Shown here: positions 10,650 through 54,085 of the stretch, one piece after another | Layout: every line of letters starts with the position of its first letter | Numbering within the stretch: position 1 is the first letter of the stretch | DNA from: Sphyrna mokarran | Lineage: Eukaryota | Direction of reading: 5' to 3' | Assembly: GCA_024679065.1 (NCBI GenBank) | Contig: JAGIQG010000006.1 | Span: 41,850,001-41,914,000 of the forward strand | Length of the DNA stretch: 64,000 nucleotides | The notes under the pieces: generated by a model | Seen by the model: only the letters and a program-made list of their open reading frames with translations | Database searches by the model: none | What the model was told of the DNA's origin: nothing | Program-made: the position numbers and the translations under genes

Positions 10650-11140
10650 AAGACTGAAATGTAATAACGTAATGTTCAACACTCCCAAAAATATATGAGC
10701 TGACTAGACACAGGAGAACAAGAAAGCAAAATAGAGAGGAAAGTGTGTCAGATGTTTGAGAAAACAGCTGAAAAATGAGTATTAATGGTGGAATAAATTT
10801 GAAAGATTTGACATAAATAAGTTAGTATCAGAAAATCAAAAGTTGCAGTATATAGGGGATATTGGGCTATTGCTTCAGTATGGTGGACAGAGGTTATGTA
10901 GGTCCCAACAGGATGGATTTGAAGGCTATGCCTTTTGGATGAGTTGTAGTTAGTGGAGGCTGGAGACCAAGATGTGATTGTTGGAGAAATTGGACATCAA
11001 GATATAACATTATAACCATGGGAAGAGATAGAGATGGAAATGACAATGTTATGGAGATGCAAGAAAGATGTCCTGATGTTGGGTTGAGAGCCGGGCTGAA
11101 ATAAAGTTGTACACCAAGGTTCCAGACTTCTGGACTTAGC
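10650..11140 (-). mobile_element. Highly degenerate L2 LINE 3' region
   Basis: Purine-rich plus strand; gttgggttgagagccgggctgaaataaagttgtacaccaaggttcc resembles the reverse complement of the L2 NLGV region. Confidence 0.4.
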
Positions 11141-11201
11141 TTGAAGTCAGTAAGAGTCTGGCAACACCAATTTTAAATCCAACCGATTTATTTGATAGTA
11201 A

Positions 11202-11242
11202 ATCTGCTAGCTTTTGGCCTTTGTAGCCTTCGTCAGGCAAAT
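11202..11242 (-). ncRNA. Minimal type I hammerhead ribozyme motif (GAAA mutated to AAAA)
   Basis: Minus strand AUUUGC-CUGACGA-AGGCUACAAAGGCC-AAAA-GC-UA-GCAGAU. Confidence 0.6.
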
Positions 11243-11298
11243 GAGATGTTCTGGTCTCCAAAAGCACACATATCAGCTTTTGGAGACCAGAACATCTC

Positions 11299-11339
11299 AT
11301 TTGCCTAACGAAGGCTACAAAGGCCGAAAGCTAGCAAAT
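11299..11339 (+). ncRNA. Minimal type I hammerhead ribozyme motif (core variant CUAACGA)
   Basis: AUUUGC-CUAACGA-A-GGCU-ACAAA-GGCC-GAAA-GC-UA-GCAAAU; perfect 6 bp stem I. Confidence 0.65.
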
Positions 11340-11684
11340 TTACTATCAAATAAATCGGTTGGATTTAAAATTGGTGTTGCCAGACTCTTAATGAGTTTAC
11401 CCCAGTCCAAAGCCGGCATCTCTACATTTAGCCTGAAGTGGCAGCAGCACAGTGCAAATGAAATTAAGCATAATTTAATGGTAGAACATACATTTTACAT
11501 GTTAAAATGGGCTAATCAGTGGCTACTAAATTAAGTTAGGATCCCTACTTCTTGGAACAAATATTAAATTTTGTGTAATGTTGCATCGTCTACCAATTCT
11601 GAAACTTGATCTGTTTGTTTTACTTACAAATAAGGATTTAAATTTAATTCAAGCATTTGACAGTCACTTTGGTATTAAGTGCCT

Positions 11685-22265: not shown

Positions 22266-23179
22266 ACATGGAACATAGAACATAGAACATTACAGCGCAG
22301 TACAGGCCCTTTGGCCCTTGATGTTGGGCCGACAAGTGGAACCAATCTAATCACCCTCTAACCTCAACTATTCCAATGTTGTCCATATGCCTATCCATTG
22401 ACCATTTGAATGCCCTTAATGTTGGCGAGTCCACAACTGCTGCAGGCAGGGCATTCCATGCTCTTACTACCCTCTGAGTAAAGAACCTACCTCTGATATC
22501 CATCCTATAACTACCACCCCTTAATTTAAAGCTACATCCCCTCGTGTTAGCCATCACTATCCAAGGAAAAAGACTCTCATTGTCTACTCTATCTAACCCT
22601 CTGATCATCTTGTATGCCTCAATTAGGTCACCTCTTAACCTTCTTCTCTCTAATGAAAATAACCTCAAGTCCTTCAGCCTTTCCTCATAAGACCTTCCCA
22701 CCATACCAGGCAACATCCTGGTAAACCTCCTCTGCACCCTTTCCAATGCCCCTACATCTTTCTTATAATGCGGTGACCAGAACTGTATGCAATACTCCAA
22801 GTGTAGCTGCACCAGAATTTTGCACAGTTGCAACATGACCTCACGGCTCTGAAATTCAATCCCTCTATCAATAAAAGCTGACACACTGTATGCCTCCTTA
22901 ACAACCTTATCAACCTGGGTACCATCTTTCAGAGAGCTAGGCACATGTACACCGAGATCTCTCTGCTCATCGACACAACTAAGAGTCCTTCCATTAGCCC
23001 TATATTCTGTACTCCTGTTACTCTTACCAAAGTGAATCACCTCACACTTTTCCACATTAAACTCCATTTGCCACCTCTTGGCCCAGCTCTGCAGCTTATC
23101 TATGTCCCTCTGCAAACTGTAACATCCATCCTCACTGTCTACAACTCCTCCGACTTTGGTGTCGTCAGCAAACTATCAA
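22266..23179 (-). mobile_element. Young CR1 LINE 3' part (254 aa ORF, truncated at FADD)
   Basis: WQMEFNVEKC, HLEYCIQFWSP, FFTQRVVRAWNALP; (GAACATA)n tail; TSD TAAGGA at 22260-22265 and 23180-23185. Confidence 0.95.
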
Positions 23180-24279: not shown

Positions 24280-24690
24280 CTGGCCATTTAAGAGTTGATC
24301 ATGTTGCTGTGGGCCCAGAGTCACATAAAGGCCAGACCAGGTGAAAGAGCAGATTTCTCTCCATGATGGGCATTAGTCAACCAGATGGGCTTTTACACCA
24401 ATGGTTTCATAATTGTCTTCAGATTTTTAAGCTGAGATTTTTATTGAATTCTAATCGCACTATCTGCCGTGATGGGATTCGAACAGAGGTTCCCAGAGCA
24501 TTGGTCTGGGTGGGTTTTTAACAGTCTCACTCTACCCGAGACTGGAAAATCCTGCCTGAGATCAATAGACATTTCCATTATATGCTCTTTACTAGTTCTG
24601 ATTCCATGATAGGCGGGACAGTAGAATTCTGGTGTCTGAGTCTGTGGATTACTAGTCCAGTGACAATACCATTACACGACCACCTCCCTC
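24280..24690 (-). mobile_element. tRNA/CR1-tail SINE interrupted by a MITE
   Basis: Reverse B-box gggattcgaac; head ggattactagtccagtgacaataccattacac. Confidence 0.8.
24508..24634. mobile_element. Harbinger-like MITE
   Basis: gggtgggtttttaacag ... cagtagaattctggtg flanked by TCT on both sides, inside a SINE. Confidence 0.6.
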
Positions 24691-24988
24691 CATACTGAAT
24701 TAGTTTTCCTGCACCATTGCTGAGCGAATTATATCCTGGAGAAGCAGGTCTAAATATGGTCTAACTTAAAGAAAACTCTGAAAAACTAAGGTTGAAAAAC
24801 ATTATAATTAGCTGAATGGAAAGAGCAGGTATGCTCTGCAGCAAAATCACGGGCATCGGCTGACCACTATTGAATTCCCTCTTTAACATTGAATGCTGAC
24901 CTTCCAAATCATCCCTATTCCTCCATTATTCCCCTCTCCCAGAGAAGCTACCCTCACCTACCTACAGTCCACTGTCAATGATATTGAA

Positions 24989-25197
24989 CATGTGGAGATA
25001 CCATGATTGGATTGGGTAGGTACAGTATGAAGTGTCACCATACCTGATTAAAGTCCAACAGATTTATTTGATATCACAAACTTTCGGAACGCTTCTCCTT
25101 CATCAGGTGAGTCTCACCTGGTGAAGGAGCAATGGTCCGAAAGCTCGTGATACCAAATAAACCTGTTGGACTTTAATCTGGTGTTGCTAAACTTTTA
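24989..25197. mobile_element. Palindromic Penelope-type insertion with hammerhead motifs
   Basis: Imperfect palindrome centred near 25122; perfect 13 bp TSD CAATGATATTGAA at 24976-24988 and 25198-25210. Confidence 0.85.
25124..25150 (+). ncRNA. Minimal hammerhead motif (plus arm)
   Basis: UCAC-CUGGUGA-AGGAGCAAUGGUCC-GAAA-GC-UC-GUGA; the opposite arm reads UCAC-CUGAUGA-AGGAGAAGCGUUCC-GAAA-GU-UU-GUGA. Confidence 0.6.
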
Positions 25198-27184
25198 CAA
25201 TGATATTGAAGCCTAATATTCAACTTGTCTTCATTGGCAAGCTGCCTGGGACCAATCAATTTCTAAATTAATTGGTTTTAAACAAAGCATTATTTTAATT
25301 ATAACAATGGTATATTTCTTTCTTAATTTTAACACAAAGCAGCTTTTCACATGATATTTTATATTCACATGATATGGAACAAAGAGCCTGCCATCTTTAA
25401 TCTGTAAATTAATTGATGGGTTATACTCGTCTGATTAAAGAAATGTGCACATCAACCGACAAGACTGATCATCTACCTAATAATTAGACCAGGAACTAGT
25501 CATTTGGGAGTCGACAGGATATTATTATCAGCCGTGGCTCCACACATTTTCAATGCAATCTCACGATTTTGAAAGGCGACCTATTCACATTGCATTCATT
25601 ATGTCCGTTAGATATCGCGTTCTTGCAATATTTTACTAAAATTAAGCTTTAGCTTTTTGTTAATAAGTTGAATAAAATATTCTGAGTGACTTTAGCTGTG
25701 TGAGAATAATTTATGTCTTTTGCAATACAACATGACATGCAAAATGAAGAGAGTTGTGAAAGAACTCAGGCTTTTGCAGCTTTGTACATTAAACACAAAT
25801 GGCACTGTGACAGGCACATACCAATTACTATTACCTTTGGGACAATCTCTGAGTTTATTTCAGAATATCCCTTGCTTTAATACATACATTAATTATGATC
25901 GAGGGACTAGGCTTTTAGAGCTATTCATCAGAAATCAATTGAAAAGAAGTTAACTGAGACTTGATCTAGATTTACAAAGAGAATACAGCATTCTGCAGTT
26001 AACATTAAGTACTTGTCACCAGTTTAATTATCTAGTTGCTGTTTGCATCATATTTACCAGACATAAATCCTGAAAATCCAATTAAAACAATAATTAAGTT
26101 GTTGTTAATCTCCATCACGAACTTGAACATCAAGAGCAGACCACAGTATAGCTGCTTTCTGAATCATTATTTTGATCAGAGCTGTCCCGATAATTTTAGA
26201 AGCAGCAACAACCACAAAAAAACAGGAAATACTAGCCACCCAAAACACCATCTGAAAAGCTACTGTGTTCAAAATACAAACAAAATCGGCCATTGTTACC
26301 ATTAGAATACACTCTTCATGTTCATTGGAAAATGCAAGCGTATTCTAACTGACCTCTGCAAATCTGTAATTACTACAGCTTCTCAAATGGCCATGAAGTT
26401 GACAGCAGCTATTAACTTCTTTGCTACCCATTTCTTCCAGGCACTTGTAAAGAATTACATCAGCTTGATTTTCATACAGGAGGCAATAACTGTTTTATTT
26501 AACTTATCATGTCAGTAAATACCCTTCCCTAAAACTGAGCAACAGCAATAAGAGTTTGTTTGGTTATTAAGGATGCGGGTGTTATTTACTCGATAAATGT
26601 ATAAGTATGTGTGTGTGAATGTTATATATCCCAGACTAGAACACGTTTAAATAAATGGAGTACATTATTATTGTATAAATATGAAAATAGCACATGTCAA
26701 TGATATCTACATGTGTGTCTAAATCCCTAGTTCAACACATATCTCATTTATTCTACTTTGATCAATGGCAACCCAAATATTTCAGAGTTGAAAGATTATA
26801 CTGTTGATTGTAGGGTAATGTGCATAGTTGTCAACTTGTCTTTTTCTTCCGAGAAACGAGTTGATTCTATCATAGGCAATATAGTTATTATATGGATTTC
26901 AGTACTTGATGGAGCCAAATGCATGATTTAATAGATCAGGAGCTGAAAGATTCACACGTGAGAGAACATTGTTCACATAAGCCAGTAGATTTACTCAGGC
27001 AGACAGCACAATGAATGAGATCAATGCTGAACACCATGTGGGCTATGCAGGTAGTGCCCCCCTGCCCCTGACGAACAAACATAAGTCTTCATGTGCTAAG
27101 GGACATGATGGGAACTCATCTTTCCTTATTGCTTTCTCTATAAAAGCAAATGGAAGATTTGCACTTGTGCAACATATTTACGTT

Positions 27185-42759: not shown

Positions 42760-43100
42760 GACAAAGTGCTGACGATGCTAGAAGTCTGAAATATAAACTG
42801 AAAATGCTGGAAACACTCAGATAGTATCTGTGGAGAAAGAAAGAGAGCCTCCCAGTTGTGTTTCTCATGGGATTTCCCATAAATTCCACCTCATACAACC
42901 AGGAAACCCTTGGTGGGGTTACCACACCCACGGAAGCAGAAGATTCCATCAGCGTCAACAGCAGGAAAATTCTGGCTGATGTTTCAAAACTGCAATCTGC
43001 ACTAGCTATAATGAAGGGATCATTGGTATCTGTTTCTTGCTGTACAGATGCTACTGTATGTTCTGAGTAATTGCAACACTTCCAGTTTCTATTATTATTA
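42760..43100. mobile_element. Inverted Penelope tail structure interrupted by a MITE (about 42848-42978)
   Basis: Reverse tail gaaaatgctggaaacactcag...atctgtggagaaag; forward tail acagatgctactg. Confidence 0.55.
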
Positions 43101-46579: not shown

Positions 46580-48640
46580 AAAAGATCAGAAGCAGAACAA
46601 ATTAGCACATTACTTTACTCCATTGGGCTATTTGCAGACAATAACATCACCAGACAAGCTATAGATGAGTCAGCTTGCTAAATGTGATGACGTTTTAAAA
46701 TCTTTTGACCTTTTCTTCAAGCTGAGAACAAGATTTTGGAATGTGTCAAATTTAACAGGAGAGTCCAACTTTGGGATCTTATTGACTGCTTCTTTACCAC
46801 ATGGCAGAAACATGTGCATGCACTGATCTGAAATCTAAATCATTCGAGACAGAAACATATTAGGTGTTACAAACGATTTACTCTCTGATCTTCTCCAAGC
46901 CAAAGATGACCTTACTCTTGACAAGGTTGTCTGCTAGCTAGGCTGTCTGAACCATGAGACCAACACAGAAACATAGAAAATAGGCGCAGGAGTAGGCCAT
47001 TTGGCCTTTTGAACCTGCACCACCATTCAATATGATCATAGCTGATCATGCGCATTTAGTATCTCACTCCCACTTTCTCGCTATATCCCTTGACCCTTTA
47101 TCATAAGGGCCACATCCAGCTCCCTCTTGAACACATCTAACAAACTGGCCCCAGAAACTTTCTGTGCTAGCGGTTCACAGCTCTCTGAGTGAAGAAGTTC
47201 TTCCTCATTTCAGTCCTGAATGGCCCGCCTATTGTTTTAAGACTGTGACTCCTGGTTATGGACTTCCCTAATTTTGGGAACATTCTTCTGGCATCTAACC
47301 TGTCCAGTCGACAGGACATTGTCAGAGAGGAAGGTCCTTCATTGAAAGAAGCCACACGTTGGTCCACCACACTAATCCATACAAGTGCAGGAACCATCCA
47401 AGCCATGGCAAGACAGTCCCACATCCCTTGACCAAATAACTGTGGCAGTGCTGTGTTGTGATGCACCGTCACAGGAGGATCAATGTCCTGTGAGTGCTGT
47501 CAAATACTTTCACTGTCCCAACCAGGGATATTTTCAGTCAGACCTGTCAGTCATGACCTTAGCAAACATCTAAGAGCCACCCATGAAGTCAAAGCCACTG
47601 ATCCAGAAAATACATGGACTGTCTACCTGGATGATTTCAGAAGATGCAACACTTCCTTTGGAACACAGATATCTCAGTGAATGGCCATCTGACTAAACTT
47701 AACTTAGATTTCAGCACCAGGATGACAGTCCTTTCAGATGAGAAACTGTCTCTCCAAGGCCATCAGATCCAAATGACAGCCCCCTCATTCTATGATGCAG
47801 GAGGATTCTAACTCATCGTCACTGGTATGATTCAAGAGCTATTGAGTATGGTGACATATAGATTATGGAGTTGATGTGTGTTGTTGAAATCAACCCTTTT
47901 CGTTCCTCAGCAGCGATGCCTGCTTAACTCTCAATCTCTTTCAACCAGCAGAAGATATAAAGAAGACATACGTACCCCATCATGAAAGACATTCTCCCAA
48001 AGGCTTAACTTCGACATGATTCAAATGGTAACTCTATTTGTAATCTCTTTGTTCATGGAGCATGTCAAGAGCAAGGTAAACTCATCATGTGGGACATTAC
48101 CACAGCATCCCACCGTGGAGGTAATGACAGATCTCGAACTACCTCCAGAGAAGCCTCTGCCTCCACAGGTACAGATGATAGATACAACTCCAACAATTGC
48201 CAAGTAGTGTACTGAAACCACAGCATTAGCTGGAACCAGGTGGCAGCCTCACACAAACACAAAGGTGAACTATCTTTCTACTCCTCTTCCATCCAAACGA
48301 CTGCCTTCCTTGGCTGCAGAAAGCTTCTAGATGTCAAAAAAAGGAAGAAGAAATGCCACCAACAACTTGAAGAGCACTGCTTTTGTTCACCAAGAGAAAA
48401 AGATCCCCACTTATTTCAACAAAACATTGCCAGATTAACTAGGCAGAGTGCAGCATCCATCAATCGGGCAAATGCTTGAAGCCATGCCTACACCCAGGAA
48501 CAACCTTCAAACCACCACCAAAATAAAGCATCTCTAGAGGCCACCACTCTTCCATTTGGAATACAAATGAGATATGGCAGGTATACAAGGCATCCAAATA
48601 ACCTGAAAATCCAATTTCAAAGAGAAGCTGGGATATTAAG
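46580..48640 (+). mobile_element. Degenerate, internally deleted Gypsy retrotransposon (gag, protease, pol C-terminus)
   Basis: IIRDRNILGV...LQAKDDLTLDKV at about 46839-46932; decayed CCHC (CPVSAVKYFHCPNQGYF); NGHLTKLNLD..MTVLS protease-like; RYGRYTRHP near end. Confidence 0.75.
46969..47310 (-). mobile_element. CR1 LINE 3' end nested in Gypsy gag
   Basis: RTEMRKNFFTQR; same subfamily as 5621; short TSD ACAG. Confidence 0.92.
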
Positions 48641-48645
48641 AACAT

Positions 48646-49319
48646 TGTTAATGCATAACATTATTCATGAAGTACTTTACAGTTAGAATAGCACATGGTT
48701 GCTACACTGAAGTTAAGTTTATAAGACTTAAAATGAGGTAAGACTTGGAGCAAATTGTATGTAAACTAATGTCAGTTTATATCCAGGAGTAAAGATGTGA
48801 GAGGAGAATGAGTAGAAGGATTTGGTACGTAATGGTTTAACATGAGACTAAGAACAGTACTGTCTACACCGTGATATAAGAAGGCACATAGTTTAGAACT
48901 AAGGGAGCCTAGAGATAGGCAGCAACTCAAAAAGATCAAATATGCGGTCCTTGCCATACTTTTAGCTTCTACTTGAAGTAAGTGGAGATTCTTTTCTCTT
49001 GGTGGACAAAAGCAGTGTTTGTCAAGTTCTTGGTGGTGTTTCTTCTTTTTCTGCCATTTCTGGTGTCTAGAAGCTCTCTGCAATCAAGGAGAGTAGTCAT
49101 TTGGATGGAAGAGTACTGCCTGCATGGTGATGTAAGATGATACATGGTTTAGAACTAAGGGAGTTTAGAGATGGGCAGCAATTCTAAAGGATCAAGTATG
49201 GGATCCTTGCCATACATTTGGCCTCTACAGTAAATATGTAAATAGTTTAGTTTTATTCATAAACATTCTTTAAAAGTTCAACAAGACTGCTTCATGGCAT
49301 TCAAGCAGTATACATCACA
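48646..49319 (+). mobile_element. Gypsy 3' LTR (rearranged)
   Basis: TGTTAATG...CATCACA downstream of the pol end and purine-rich agagaagctggga. Confidence 0.6.
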
Positions 49320-52519: not shown

Positions 52520-53588
52520 GTGATTGAGCTAATTGGATTAGGAATTGGCTAGCAGATGGAAGACAGAGGGTGGTAGTTGATGGGAGATATTCATCGTGGA
52601 GTTCGGTTACTAGTGGTGTACCTCAGGGATCTGTTTTGGGGCCCCTGCTGTTTGTAATTTTTATAAATGATCTGGATGAGGGTATTGAAGGATGGATTAG
52701 TAAATTTGCAGATGACACCAAAGTCGGAGGAGTGGTAGATAGTGAAGAGGGGTGTTATAGTTTGCAGAGAGACTTGGACAAGTTGCAGAGCTGGGCCGAG
52801 AGGTGGCAAATGGAGTTTAATGTGGAAAAGTGTGAGGTAATTCACTTTGGCAGGAATAACAAATGTGTAGAGTATAGGGCTAATGGTAGGACTCTTAATA
52901 GTGTTGATGAACAGAGGGATCTTGGTGTATATGTGCATAGATCCCTGAAAGTTGGCAATCAAGTCGATAAGGTTGTTAAGAAGGCATACGGAGTCTTAGC
53001 TTTTATTGGTAGGGGGATTGAATTTCGGAGCCGCAACGTCATGTTGCAACTGTACAAAACTCTAGTGCGGCCGCACTTGGAGTATTGTGTACAGTTCTGG
53101 TCCCCGCATTATAAGAAAGATGTGGAGGCATTGGAGAGGGTACAGAGGAGGTTTACCAGGATGTTGCCTGGTATGGAGGGCAGGTCTTATGAAGAGAGGC
53201 TGAGGGATTTGAGGTTGTTTTCGTTAGAAAGAAGGCGGCTAAGAGGAGACCTTATTGAAACATATAAGATGATTAGAGGTTTAGATAGGGTGGACAGTGA
53301 TAGCCTTTTTCCTAGGATGGAGAAAGCTAGCACGAGGGGACATAGCTTTAAATTAAGGGGTGGTGGTTTAGGACAGATGTCAGAGGTAGGTTCTTTACCC
53401 AGAGGGTGGTAAGAGTATGGAATGCCTTGCCTGCTGCAGTTGTAGATGCGCCAAGTTTGGTGGCGTTTAAGAGGTTAGTAGATAAGTTTATGGATGAAAA
53501 GGGAATGGTTTAGGTTAGAGGGTCACTGCTTGTTCCTAATTTGTCGGCACAACATTGAAGGCCGAAGGGCCTGTTCTGCACTGTAATG
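52520..53588 (+). mobile_element. Young CR1 LINE 3' part (280 aa ORF with RT motifs)
   Basis: GVPQGSVLGP, KFADDTK, RPHLEYC; (TTCTATG)n tail. Confidence 0.97.
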
Positions 53589-53840: not shown

Positions 53841-54029
53841 TGGGTGGAGGGTATCAAATAGAAATTGTATCAGATAGGTTCAATAACAAATGGACAATCC
53901 AGTGTGTTTTAACTCAAAACATTAAATTTAAAACCCCAATCCTTGGGTGTGAACCACACTTTATCTGTAGAACCTGATTCAGTTCCCATTCTTCTTCAAA
54001 TGGTTTCATTCCTCTGATACTTTCTATTC

Positions 54030-54085
54030 CAGTAAGAGGTCTTACAACAGCAGCTTAAAGTCTAACCGGTTTATATATAATCATA
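54030..54085. mobile_element. Fragment of the palindromic Penelope-type arm (no hammerhead)
   Basis: cagtaagaggtcttacaacagcagcttaaagtctaaccggttta similar to 11148-11190. Confidence 0.5.

Follow-up and report, generated by a model that had tools for sequence, protein, structure and literature searches.

The window is a 64,000-nt stretch of Sphyrna mokarran DNA (contig JAGIQG010000006.1, forward strand), and all positions below are counted from its first letter. It consists of repeat-rich eukaryotic DNA of about 40% GC with LINE reverse-transcriptase fragments. It harbors two short elements built of inverted arms, which are referred to as E1 and E2, and a third fragment related to both. Their parts are listed here.

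11136-11147, no strand: E1 left 12-bp direct repeat, one mismatch
11148-11265, minus strand: E1 inverted tail-less arm with hammerhead (core 11236-11230, G12>A)
11266-11275, no strand: E1 10-nt spacer at the head-to-head junction
11276-11427, plus strand: E1 tail arm with hammerhead (core 11305-11311, G5>A)
11428-11439, no strand: E1 right 12-bp direct repeat
24976-24988, no strand: E2 left 13-bp direct repeat, 77% AT, putative target-site duplication (TSD)
24989-25026, minus strand: 38-nt tail, on the tail arm only; 3' end of E2
25027-25112, minus strand: E2 tail-bearing arm, a 5'-truncated pLTR segment that begins at hammerhead stem I
25074-25110, minus strand: minimal type I hammerhead of the E2 tail arm
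25113-25197, plus strand: E2 inverted tail-less arm
25114-25150, plus strand: minimal type I hammerhead of the E2 inverted arm
25198-25210, no strand: E2 right 13-bp direct repeat
54029-54074, minus strand: third, older solo fragment related to E1 and E2 (E=6e-7 with a profile of the four arms)

E2 covers 209 bp (24989-25197) between identical 13-mers at 24976-24988 and 25198-25210. The length and the perfect 13-bp repeat given by the sequence-only reading are hence confirmed, with the repeat taken as a presumed TSD. When 9043 window positions were checked for 13-mer or 11-mer repeats about 209 bp apart, five matches came up, all of which are E2 itself. No empty site was present among the 15 listed of 155 contig joints over 24500-25700. 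On the minus strand, a first TSD copy is followed by the inverted tail-less arm of 85 nt, and a junction of 1 nt then leads to the tail arm, its 38-nt tail, and the second TSD copy. The inverted arms at 25030-25111 and 25113-25194 lie 1 nt apart and are 82% complementary, with 18 differences in 85 aligned columns (21% divergence). The whole element is predicted to fold into a single long arm-to-arm hairpin of -103 kcal/mol, which hides the ribozyme fold.

E1 (11148-11427) has 118-nt arms with four differences in 118 columns, a 34-nt tail at 11394-11427, and a 12-bp direct repeat that is 67% AT. Alignment of the inverted arms and the one-sided tail bear out the earlier statement that E2 repeats the design of the first element, and the opposite orientation holds as well, since the tail is on the minus strand in E2 and on the plus strand in E1. 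The arm flanks had been called homologous. Indeed, a 23-nt arm-flank motif occurs four times in the window, once per arm, and in none of 100 shuffles. The proposed tail motif accccagtcca is exact in E1, but E2 carries a one-letter variant of it. The solo fragment at 54029-54074 has no hammerhead, no tail, and no clear TSD, and its end coincides with the tail-less end of the E1 inverted arm. The tail-less ends of E1, E2, and this fragment fall within about 3 nt of one another, and the three copies begin at different points, a pattern of variable 5' truncation.

We then inspected the arms for ribozymes. A descriptor of the minimal type I hammerhead, with one core mismatch allowed, was run on both strands of the window and matched exactly the four arms of E1 and E2 and nothing else; six shuffles gave two matches in total. 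At the lineage level, the CUGANGA and GAAA boxes, the NUH site, and stems I and II are all present. In the E2 tail arm, the core (25106-25100) and GAAA are intact, stem II has 4 bp, and the cleavage position lies after 25078; the triplet there is UUU and the stem III palindrome is decayed. In the E2 inverted arm, the core (25118-25124) carries A6>G, stem II is reduced to 3 bp, and the cleavage position lies after 25146. Three of the four arms have a core lesion (A6>G in the E2 inverted arm, G5>A in the E1 tail arm, G12>A in the E1 inverted arm). Only the E2 tail arm keeps both core boxes, but its cleavage triplet is UUU and it has lost the palindromic stem III. The claim that the core CUGANGA-A...GAAAG was kept accordingly stands when both arms of an element are combined, and fails for three of four arms taken singly.

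Long inverted arms flanked by a presumed TSD also suit a MITE, a fold-back DNA transposon, or a microRNA hairpin in which a hammerhead-like motif arose by chance, and the best Rfam matches are indeed microRNA hairpin models. Yet Rfam gave no window match at the gathering threshold, and the 9 and 13 matches at E values up to 10 were of hairpin or snoRNA type, with no hammerhead among them; all are far under the gathering score and reflect the hairpin alone. Moreover, on the tail side the inverted repeat stops short of the element's end, the junctions vary, and the ribozyme layout recurs in all four arms with compensatory stems. We regard this explanation, which the one-sided tail and the conserved core already contradict, as the least probable of those weighed. 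A covariance model built from the four arms recovered only its own training arms, the eight other matches having E above 2. Pattern scans of public collections returned 0, 0, 5, 4, and 13 loci, which we attribute to chance; all 22 matches end at the motif with no adjoining hammerhead or tail.

The sequence-only reading had described stem I as changed from AUUUGC/GCAAAU to UCAC/GUGA and stem II from GGCU/GGCC to GGA../..UCC. The four-arm alignment reproduces these letters. Between the E1 and E2 lineages, three of the eight stem pairs are unambiguous double changes and a fourth is probable, and no pair is broken. The 3' letter of the fourth pair is ambiguous; other copies show C there in their loose-end consensus, giving G-C. 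Differences between the lineages fall in 7 of 16 stem columns, in 3 of 5 loop II columns, and in none of 14 core columns, and the free positions N7 and N17 both differ. RNAalifold predicts eight hammerhead pairs from the alignment unaided, four of them with a double change. With the 10-pair structure imposed, 90% of cells are paired, as against 17-45% when the partners are slid.

The compensatory pattern between the two lineages is real. Under a naive two-lineage formula, its probability comes to about 1e-4 if four pairs are counted and, by hand calculation with that formula, to about 1-2e-3 if three are; it is to be read as a single contrast of two lineages and not as a family-level covariation test. 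A shuffle control of stem pairing (0 of 500) ignores relatedness and is not relied on. Taken together with the double stem changes and the conserved core, this probability makes it likely that selection acted on the hammerhead fold. The earlier proposal of selection on the fold is therefore upheld as to the pattern and likely as to the selection, though it is based on one contrast and the unit it named needs revision. As the hairpin of the palindrome hides the ribozyme fold and the junctions vary between copies, the selected unit was most likely the parent Penelope-like element (PLE) lineage and not the palindromic unit. Covarying families of minimal hammerheads in PLEs have already been published (PMC4209133), and the paired stem changes seen here are of the kind described there. 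The covariation seen when the older subfamily is set against the younger adds modest support for selection of the fold in vivo.

Contigs of 4 of 24 listed runs were compared with the window over 24500-25700 at 80% likeness. In run X1, the flanks show no difference from the window, of which this run may be the source. The contig depth summed over 25156-25196 reaches 1.8-3.7 million, compared with 5-17 on the unique flanks, that is, about 2e5 times the flank in all four runs, a ratio that is not a copy number. The repeat family of E1 and E2 is clearly very abundant. Contigs cross from unique flank into E2 on both sides in runs X2 and X6 and on the right side only in X9, and none of those listed spans the whole 24500-25700 stretch. 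The E2 insertion is common to the relatives. The left flank diverges from the relatives by 11-13%, and the greater arm-to-arm divergence of 21% is as expected if the insertion is older than their split. If the arms were identical at birth, E2 predates the split of the relatives and E1 is several times younger.

The same contigs were used to examine how the family continues beyond E2. Among the 24 listed of 1543 loose ends, those at 25112/25113 reveal that family sequence runs on upstream of the arms, at 25136/25139 the core is intact and stem II pairs, and at 25186 the tail is present. Of the 15 listed joints (of 155), 12 skip the center, and the points where they do so differ: 6 lie no more than 6 nt from symmetry and 6 deviate by 14-49 nt; two of the other three join opposite strands, and one begins in another repeat. 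One listed joint resumes at 25147, as it would if junctions piled up at the cleavage site, but this break point is to be read with the bias that E2's own mutations place on all of them. The sides of the joints are short (23-33 letters at best) and flagged as often repeat-derived. We treat the joints and loose ends as supporting and not as decisive evidence.

These data bear on whether the palindrome itself is the mobile unit, that is, a fixed non-autonomous element that is transcribed and reinserted as a whole, with both hammerheads selected within it. E1 and E2 share the same design with near-equal arms and have kept whole hammerheads, and some of the listed joints recur in several runs, all as such a unit would predict. 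Against this, the junctions differ between the two elements (a 10-nt spacer with 118-nt arms in E1, 1 nt with 85-nt arms in E2) and vary again among the 12 central joints, family sequence extends upstream of the junction, and the solo tail-less fragment at 54029-54074 exists. The full RNA would also adopt the long hairpin described above for E2, which excludes the hammerhead fold. Furthermore, minimal hammerheads need a same-sense partner to dimerize (available text of PMC4209133), whereas those of the arms in E1 and E2 are on opposite strands. A self-contained palindromic unit is thus improbable, although less so than the other rivals. Since the family extends beyond the arms, the inversion junctions vary, and the insertion is common to the relatives, the palindrome was most likely built at insertion.

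Palindromes built at insertion are common among PLEs. An inverted 5'-truncated copy and a 30-40 bp tail at one end are standard for them (PMC8557442; PMC8969392), and the insertions described in PMC3846280 have head-to-head inverted pLTRs, a palindromic junction, a 31-bp tail, and an 8-10 bp TSD. As far as the available text of PMC3846280 and PMC8557442 goes, the window elements share with the complex insertions of endonuclease-positive (EN+) PLEs the head-to-head inverted truncated copy with its palindromic junction, the one-ended tail of 30-40 nt (38 and 34 nt here), and the AT-rich site with direct repeats, here the presumed TSDs. Specifically, the inverted head-to-head copy is found in both elements and a hammerhead in the terminal repeat in all four arms. 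Variable 5' truncation, another trait of such insertions, is seen among the three window copies and in the varied joints and upstream loose ends of other copies. The window elements differ from those insertions in that only two pLTR stumps are left and the link to an ORF is absent, and their putative TSDs have 12-13 bp as compared with 8-10 bp in Adineta (PMC3846280).

The ribozymes resemble the minimal hammerheads of metazoan PLEs. The latter have an unpaired base before stem II, G10.1-C11.1, and a palindromic 15.2-16.2, and occur in pLTRs as opposite-strand pairs 100-700 bp apart (PMC4209133). According to the available text of that source, the features in common with the window are the short stem I, the unpaired base before stem II, G10.1-C11.1, the lack of a stem III beyond the palindromic 4-mer, the families with compensatory changes, and the opposite-strand pairs at a distance of 100-700 bp. 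Stem II is 4 bp here and 7-8 bp in the minimal hammerheads of Schistosoma, and the available text holds no name for the E1/E2 family.

A hammerhead of type I without an ORF and with a large TSD would also suit a monomer of a non-LTR retrozyme, a tandem-repeat hammerhead element that spreads via circular RNA (PMC7229834). Such elements are non-coding and PLE-related, as are those in the window, and retrozymes are reported in one chondrichthyan and argued to derive from pLTRs (bioRxiv 2026.07.22.740005, available text). They are, however, tandem units with mostly canonical hammerheads, whereas E1 and E2 are single inverted insertions; no head-to-tail copy is present at either locus, the hammerhead is of the minimal and not the canonical type, and the inverted arrangement with a one-sided tail is a feature of PLE insertions. 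A retrozyme origin is therefore very unlikely.

We also searched for an autonomous partner, whose ORF in an EN+ PLE would encode a telomerase-like RT together with GIY-YIG. None of the 17 ORFs of at least 120 aa in the window overlaps E1 or E2. A frame on the plus strand (11268-11426) is open for 53 codons across the E1 hammerhead and tail; E2 has one stop in it, and the E1/E2 indel within this region is 6 nt. The frame may be due to chance or may be a trace of the parent ORF. A search with it yielded no RT/GIY-YIG partner among 15 candidates. Its sole match among 1.84 billion protein representatives, a tandem-repeat eukaryotic protein with a summed-repeat score and no RT or GIY-YIG domain, was rejected. 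Given that no such partner was found, the family is tied to PLEs by its architecture and ribozyme type only. Among papers on Penelope-like elements, sharks or chondrichthyans, hammerheads, and palindromes, none is about the E1/E2 family by title or abstract; Repbase and Dfam were outside this search.

Taken together, E2 is best explained, with a probability of roughly 0.87, as a 5'-truncated, dead insertion that comprises the hammerhead-bearing end, the pLTR with its tail, of an EN+ PLE or of a short non-coding derivative mobilized by one. That it works like a PLE insertion is highly likely. In the proposed course of events, the RT/GIY-YIG protein of a PLE would nick an AT-rich target with a 13-nt stagger, the nicking being read from the 13-bp repeat. 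From the distal tail end, reverse transcription would proceed for about 124 nt before halting. That event would also yield the inverted tail-less second copy, whether through fold-back on the new cDNA or because a second synthesis was primed, and this copy would then be joined to the other nick. Both arms decayed after insertion. Both arms reach across the cleavage site, so the RNA that served as template had not been cleaved. E1 and E2 would stem from a younger and an older subfamily, respectively, in whose masters selection presumably maintained a minimal type I hammerhead, and such selection would account for the compensatory stem changes.

The available text of PMC8557442 and PMC3846280 treats the formation of inverted copies and tails by PLEs as unresolved. 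The near-equal arms of E1 and E2 favor fold-back, as proposed from rotifer PLEs (PMC3846280). Twin priming may also apply, as in Anolis both strands are nicked and extended by the protein, whose two start sites flank the tail (PMC11167929). In Poseidon of Anolis carolinensis (PAc), the cut site is 85-92 nt from the main RT start, and insertion in vitro does not need the hammerhead, although the latter is conserved (PMC11167929). The window elements have in common with PAc the two insertion ends bracketing the tail, the AT-rich target, the uncleaved RNA template, and a similar distance from the cut site to the 3' end (88-89 and 94 nt from cleavage site to tail end). The ORF of PAc starts inside the hammerhead, whereas no ORF was found linked to the window elements. 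With Poseidon and Neptune as candidate clades, the distance may serve as a lead to Poseidon.

As a single locus, E2 carries little weight, since it is decayed, belongs to a very abundant repeat, and has an architecture that is already published; its value is as data. A speculative extension, which we consider doubtful, is that the stump insertions are numerous and short enough to record PLE integration almost without noise, with the tail end marking the distal RT start, the other end the proximal site, and the symmetry of the junction telling fold-back from twin priming; in its bolder form, a subset of palindromes would now propagate by itself. If true, a genome-wide map of junctions relative to the cut site, together with covariation at the subfamily level, could reveal how inverted pLTRs and tails form, and the junction map could reveal whether cleavage ever determines where the template's 5' end lies.

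The surroundings contain further repeats. The right flank of E2 (25211-25700) has no long open frame and differs by 2.2-2.9% from three relatives, compared with 11-13% on the left flank; it is likely a conserved non-coding block directly beside the insertion. To the left of E2, 24500-24704 is another very high-copy repeat with a summed depth of up to 69,000. Much older inverted arms at 42790-42846 and about 43030-43095, some 200 bp apart and unrelated in sequence to E1 and E2, align with a score of 60 (48 or less in 300 random pairs), and may be the decayed remains of a fold-back insertion from a different family. A 74-bp palindrome at 2343-2416 is 81% complementary and has no hammerhead. An inverted 141-bp pair at 48284-48419 and 48973-49113 is 79% alike and overlaps a 132-bp direct repeat with 256-bp spacing. 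Two 5'-truncated LINE copies, at 52528-53412 on the plus strand and 22351-23172 on the minus strand, are 85% alike over 664 nt and carry RT frames that are open over 294 and 273 codons, respectively.
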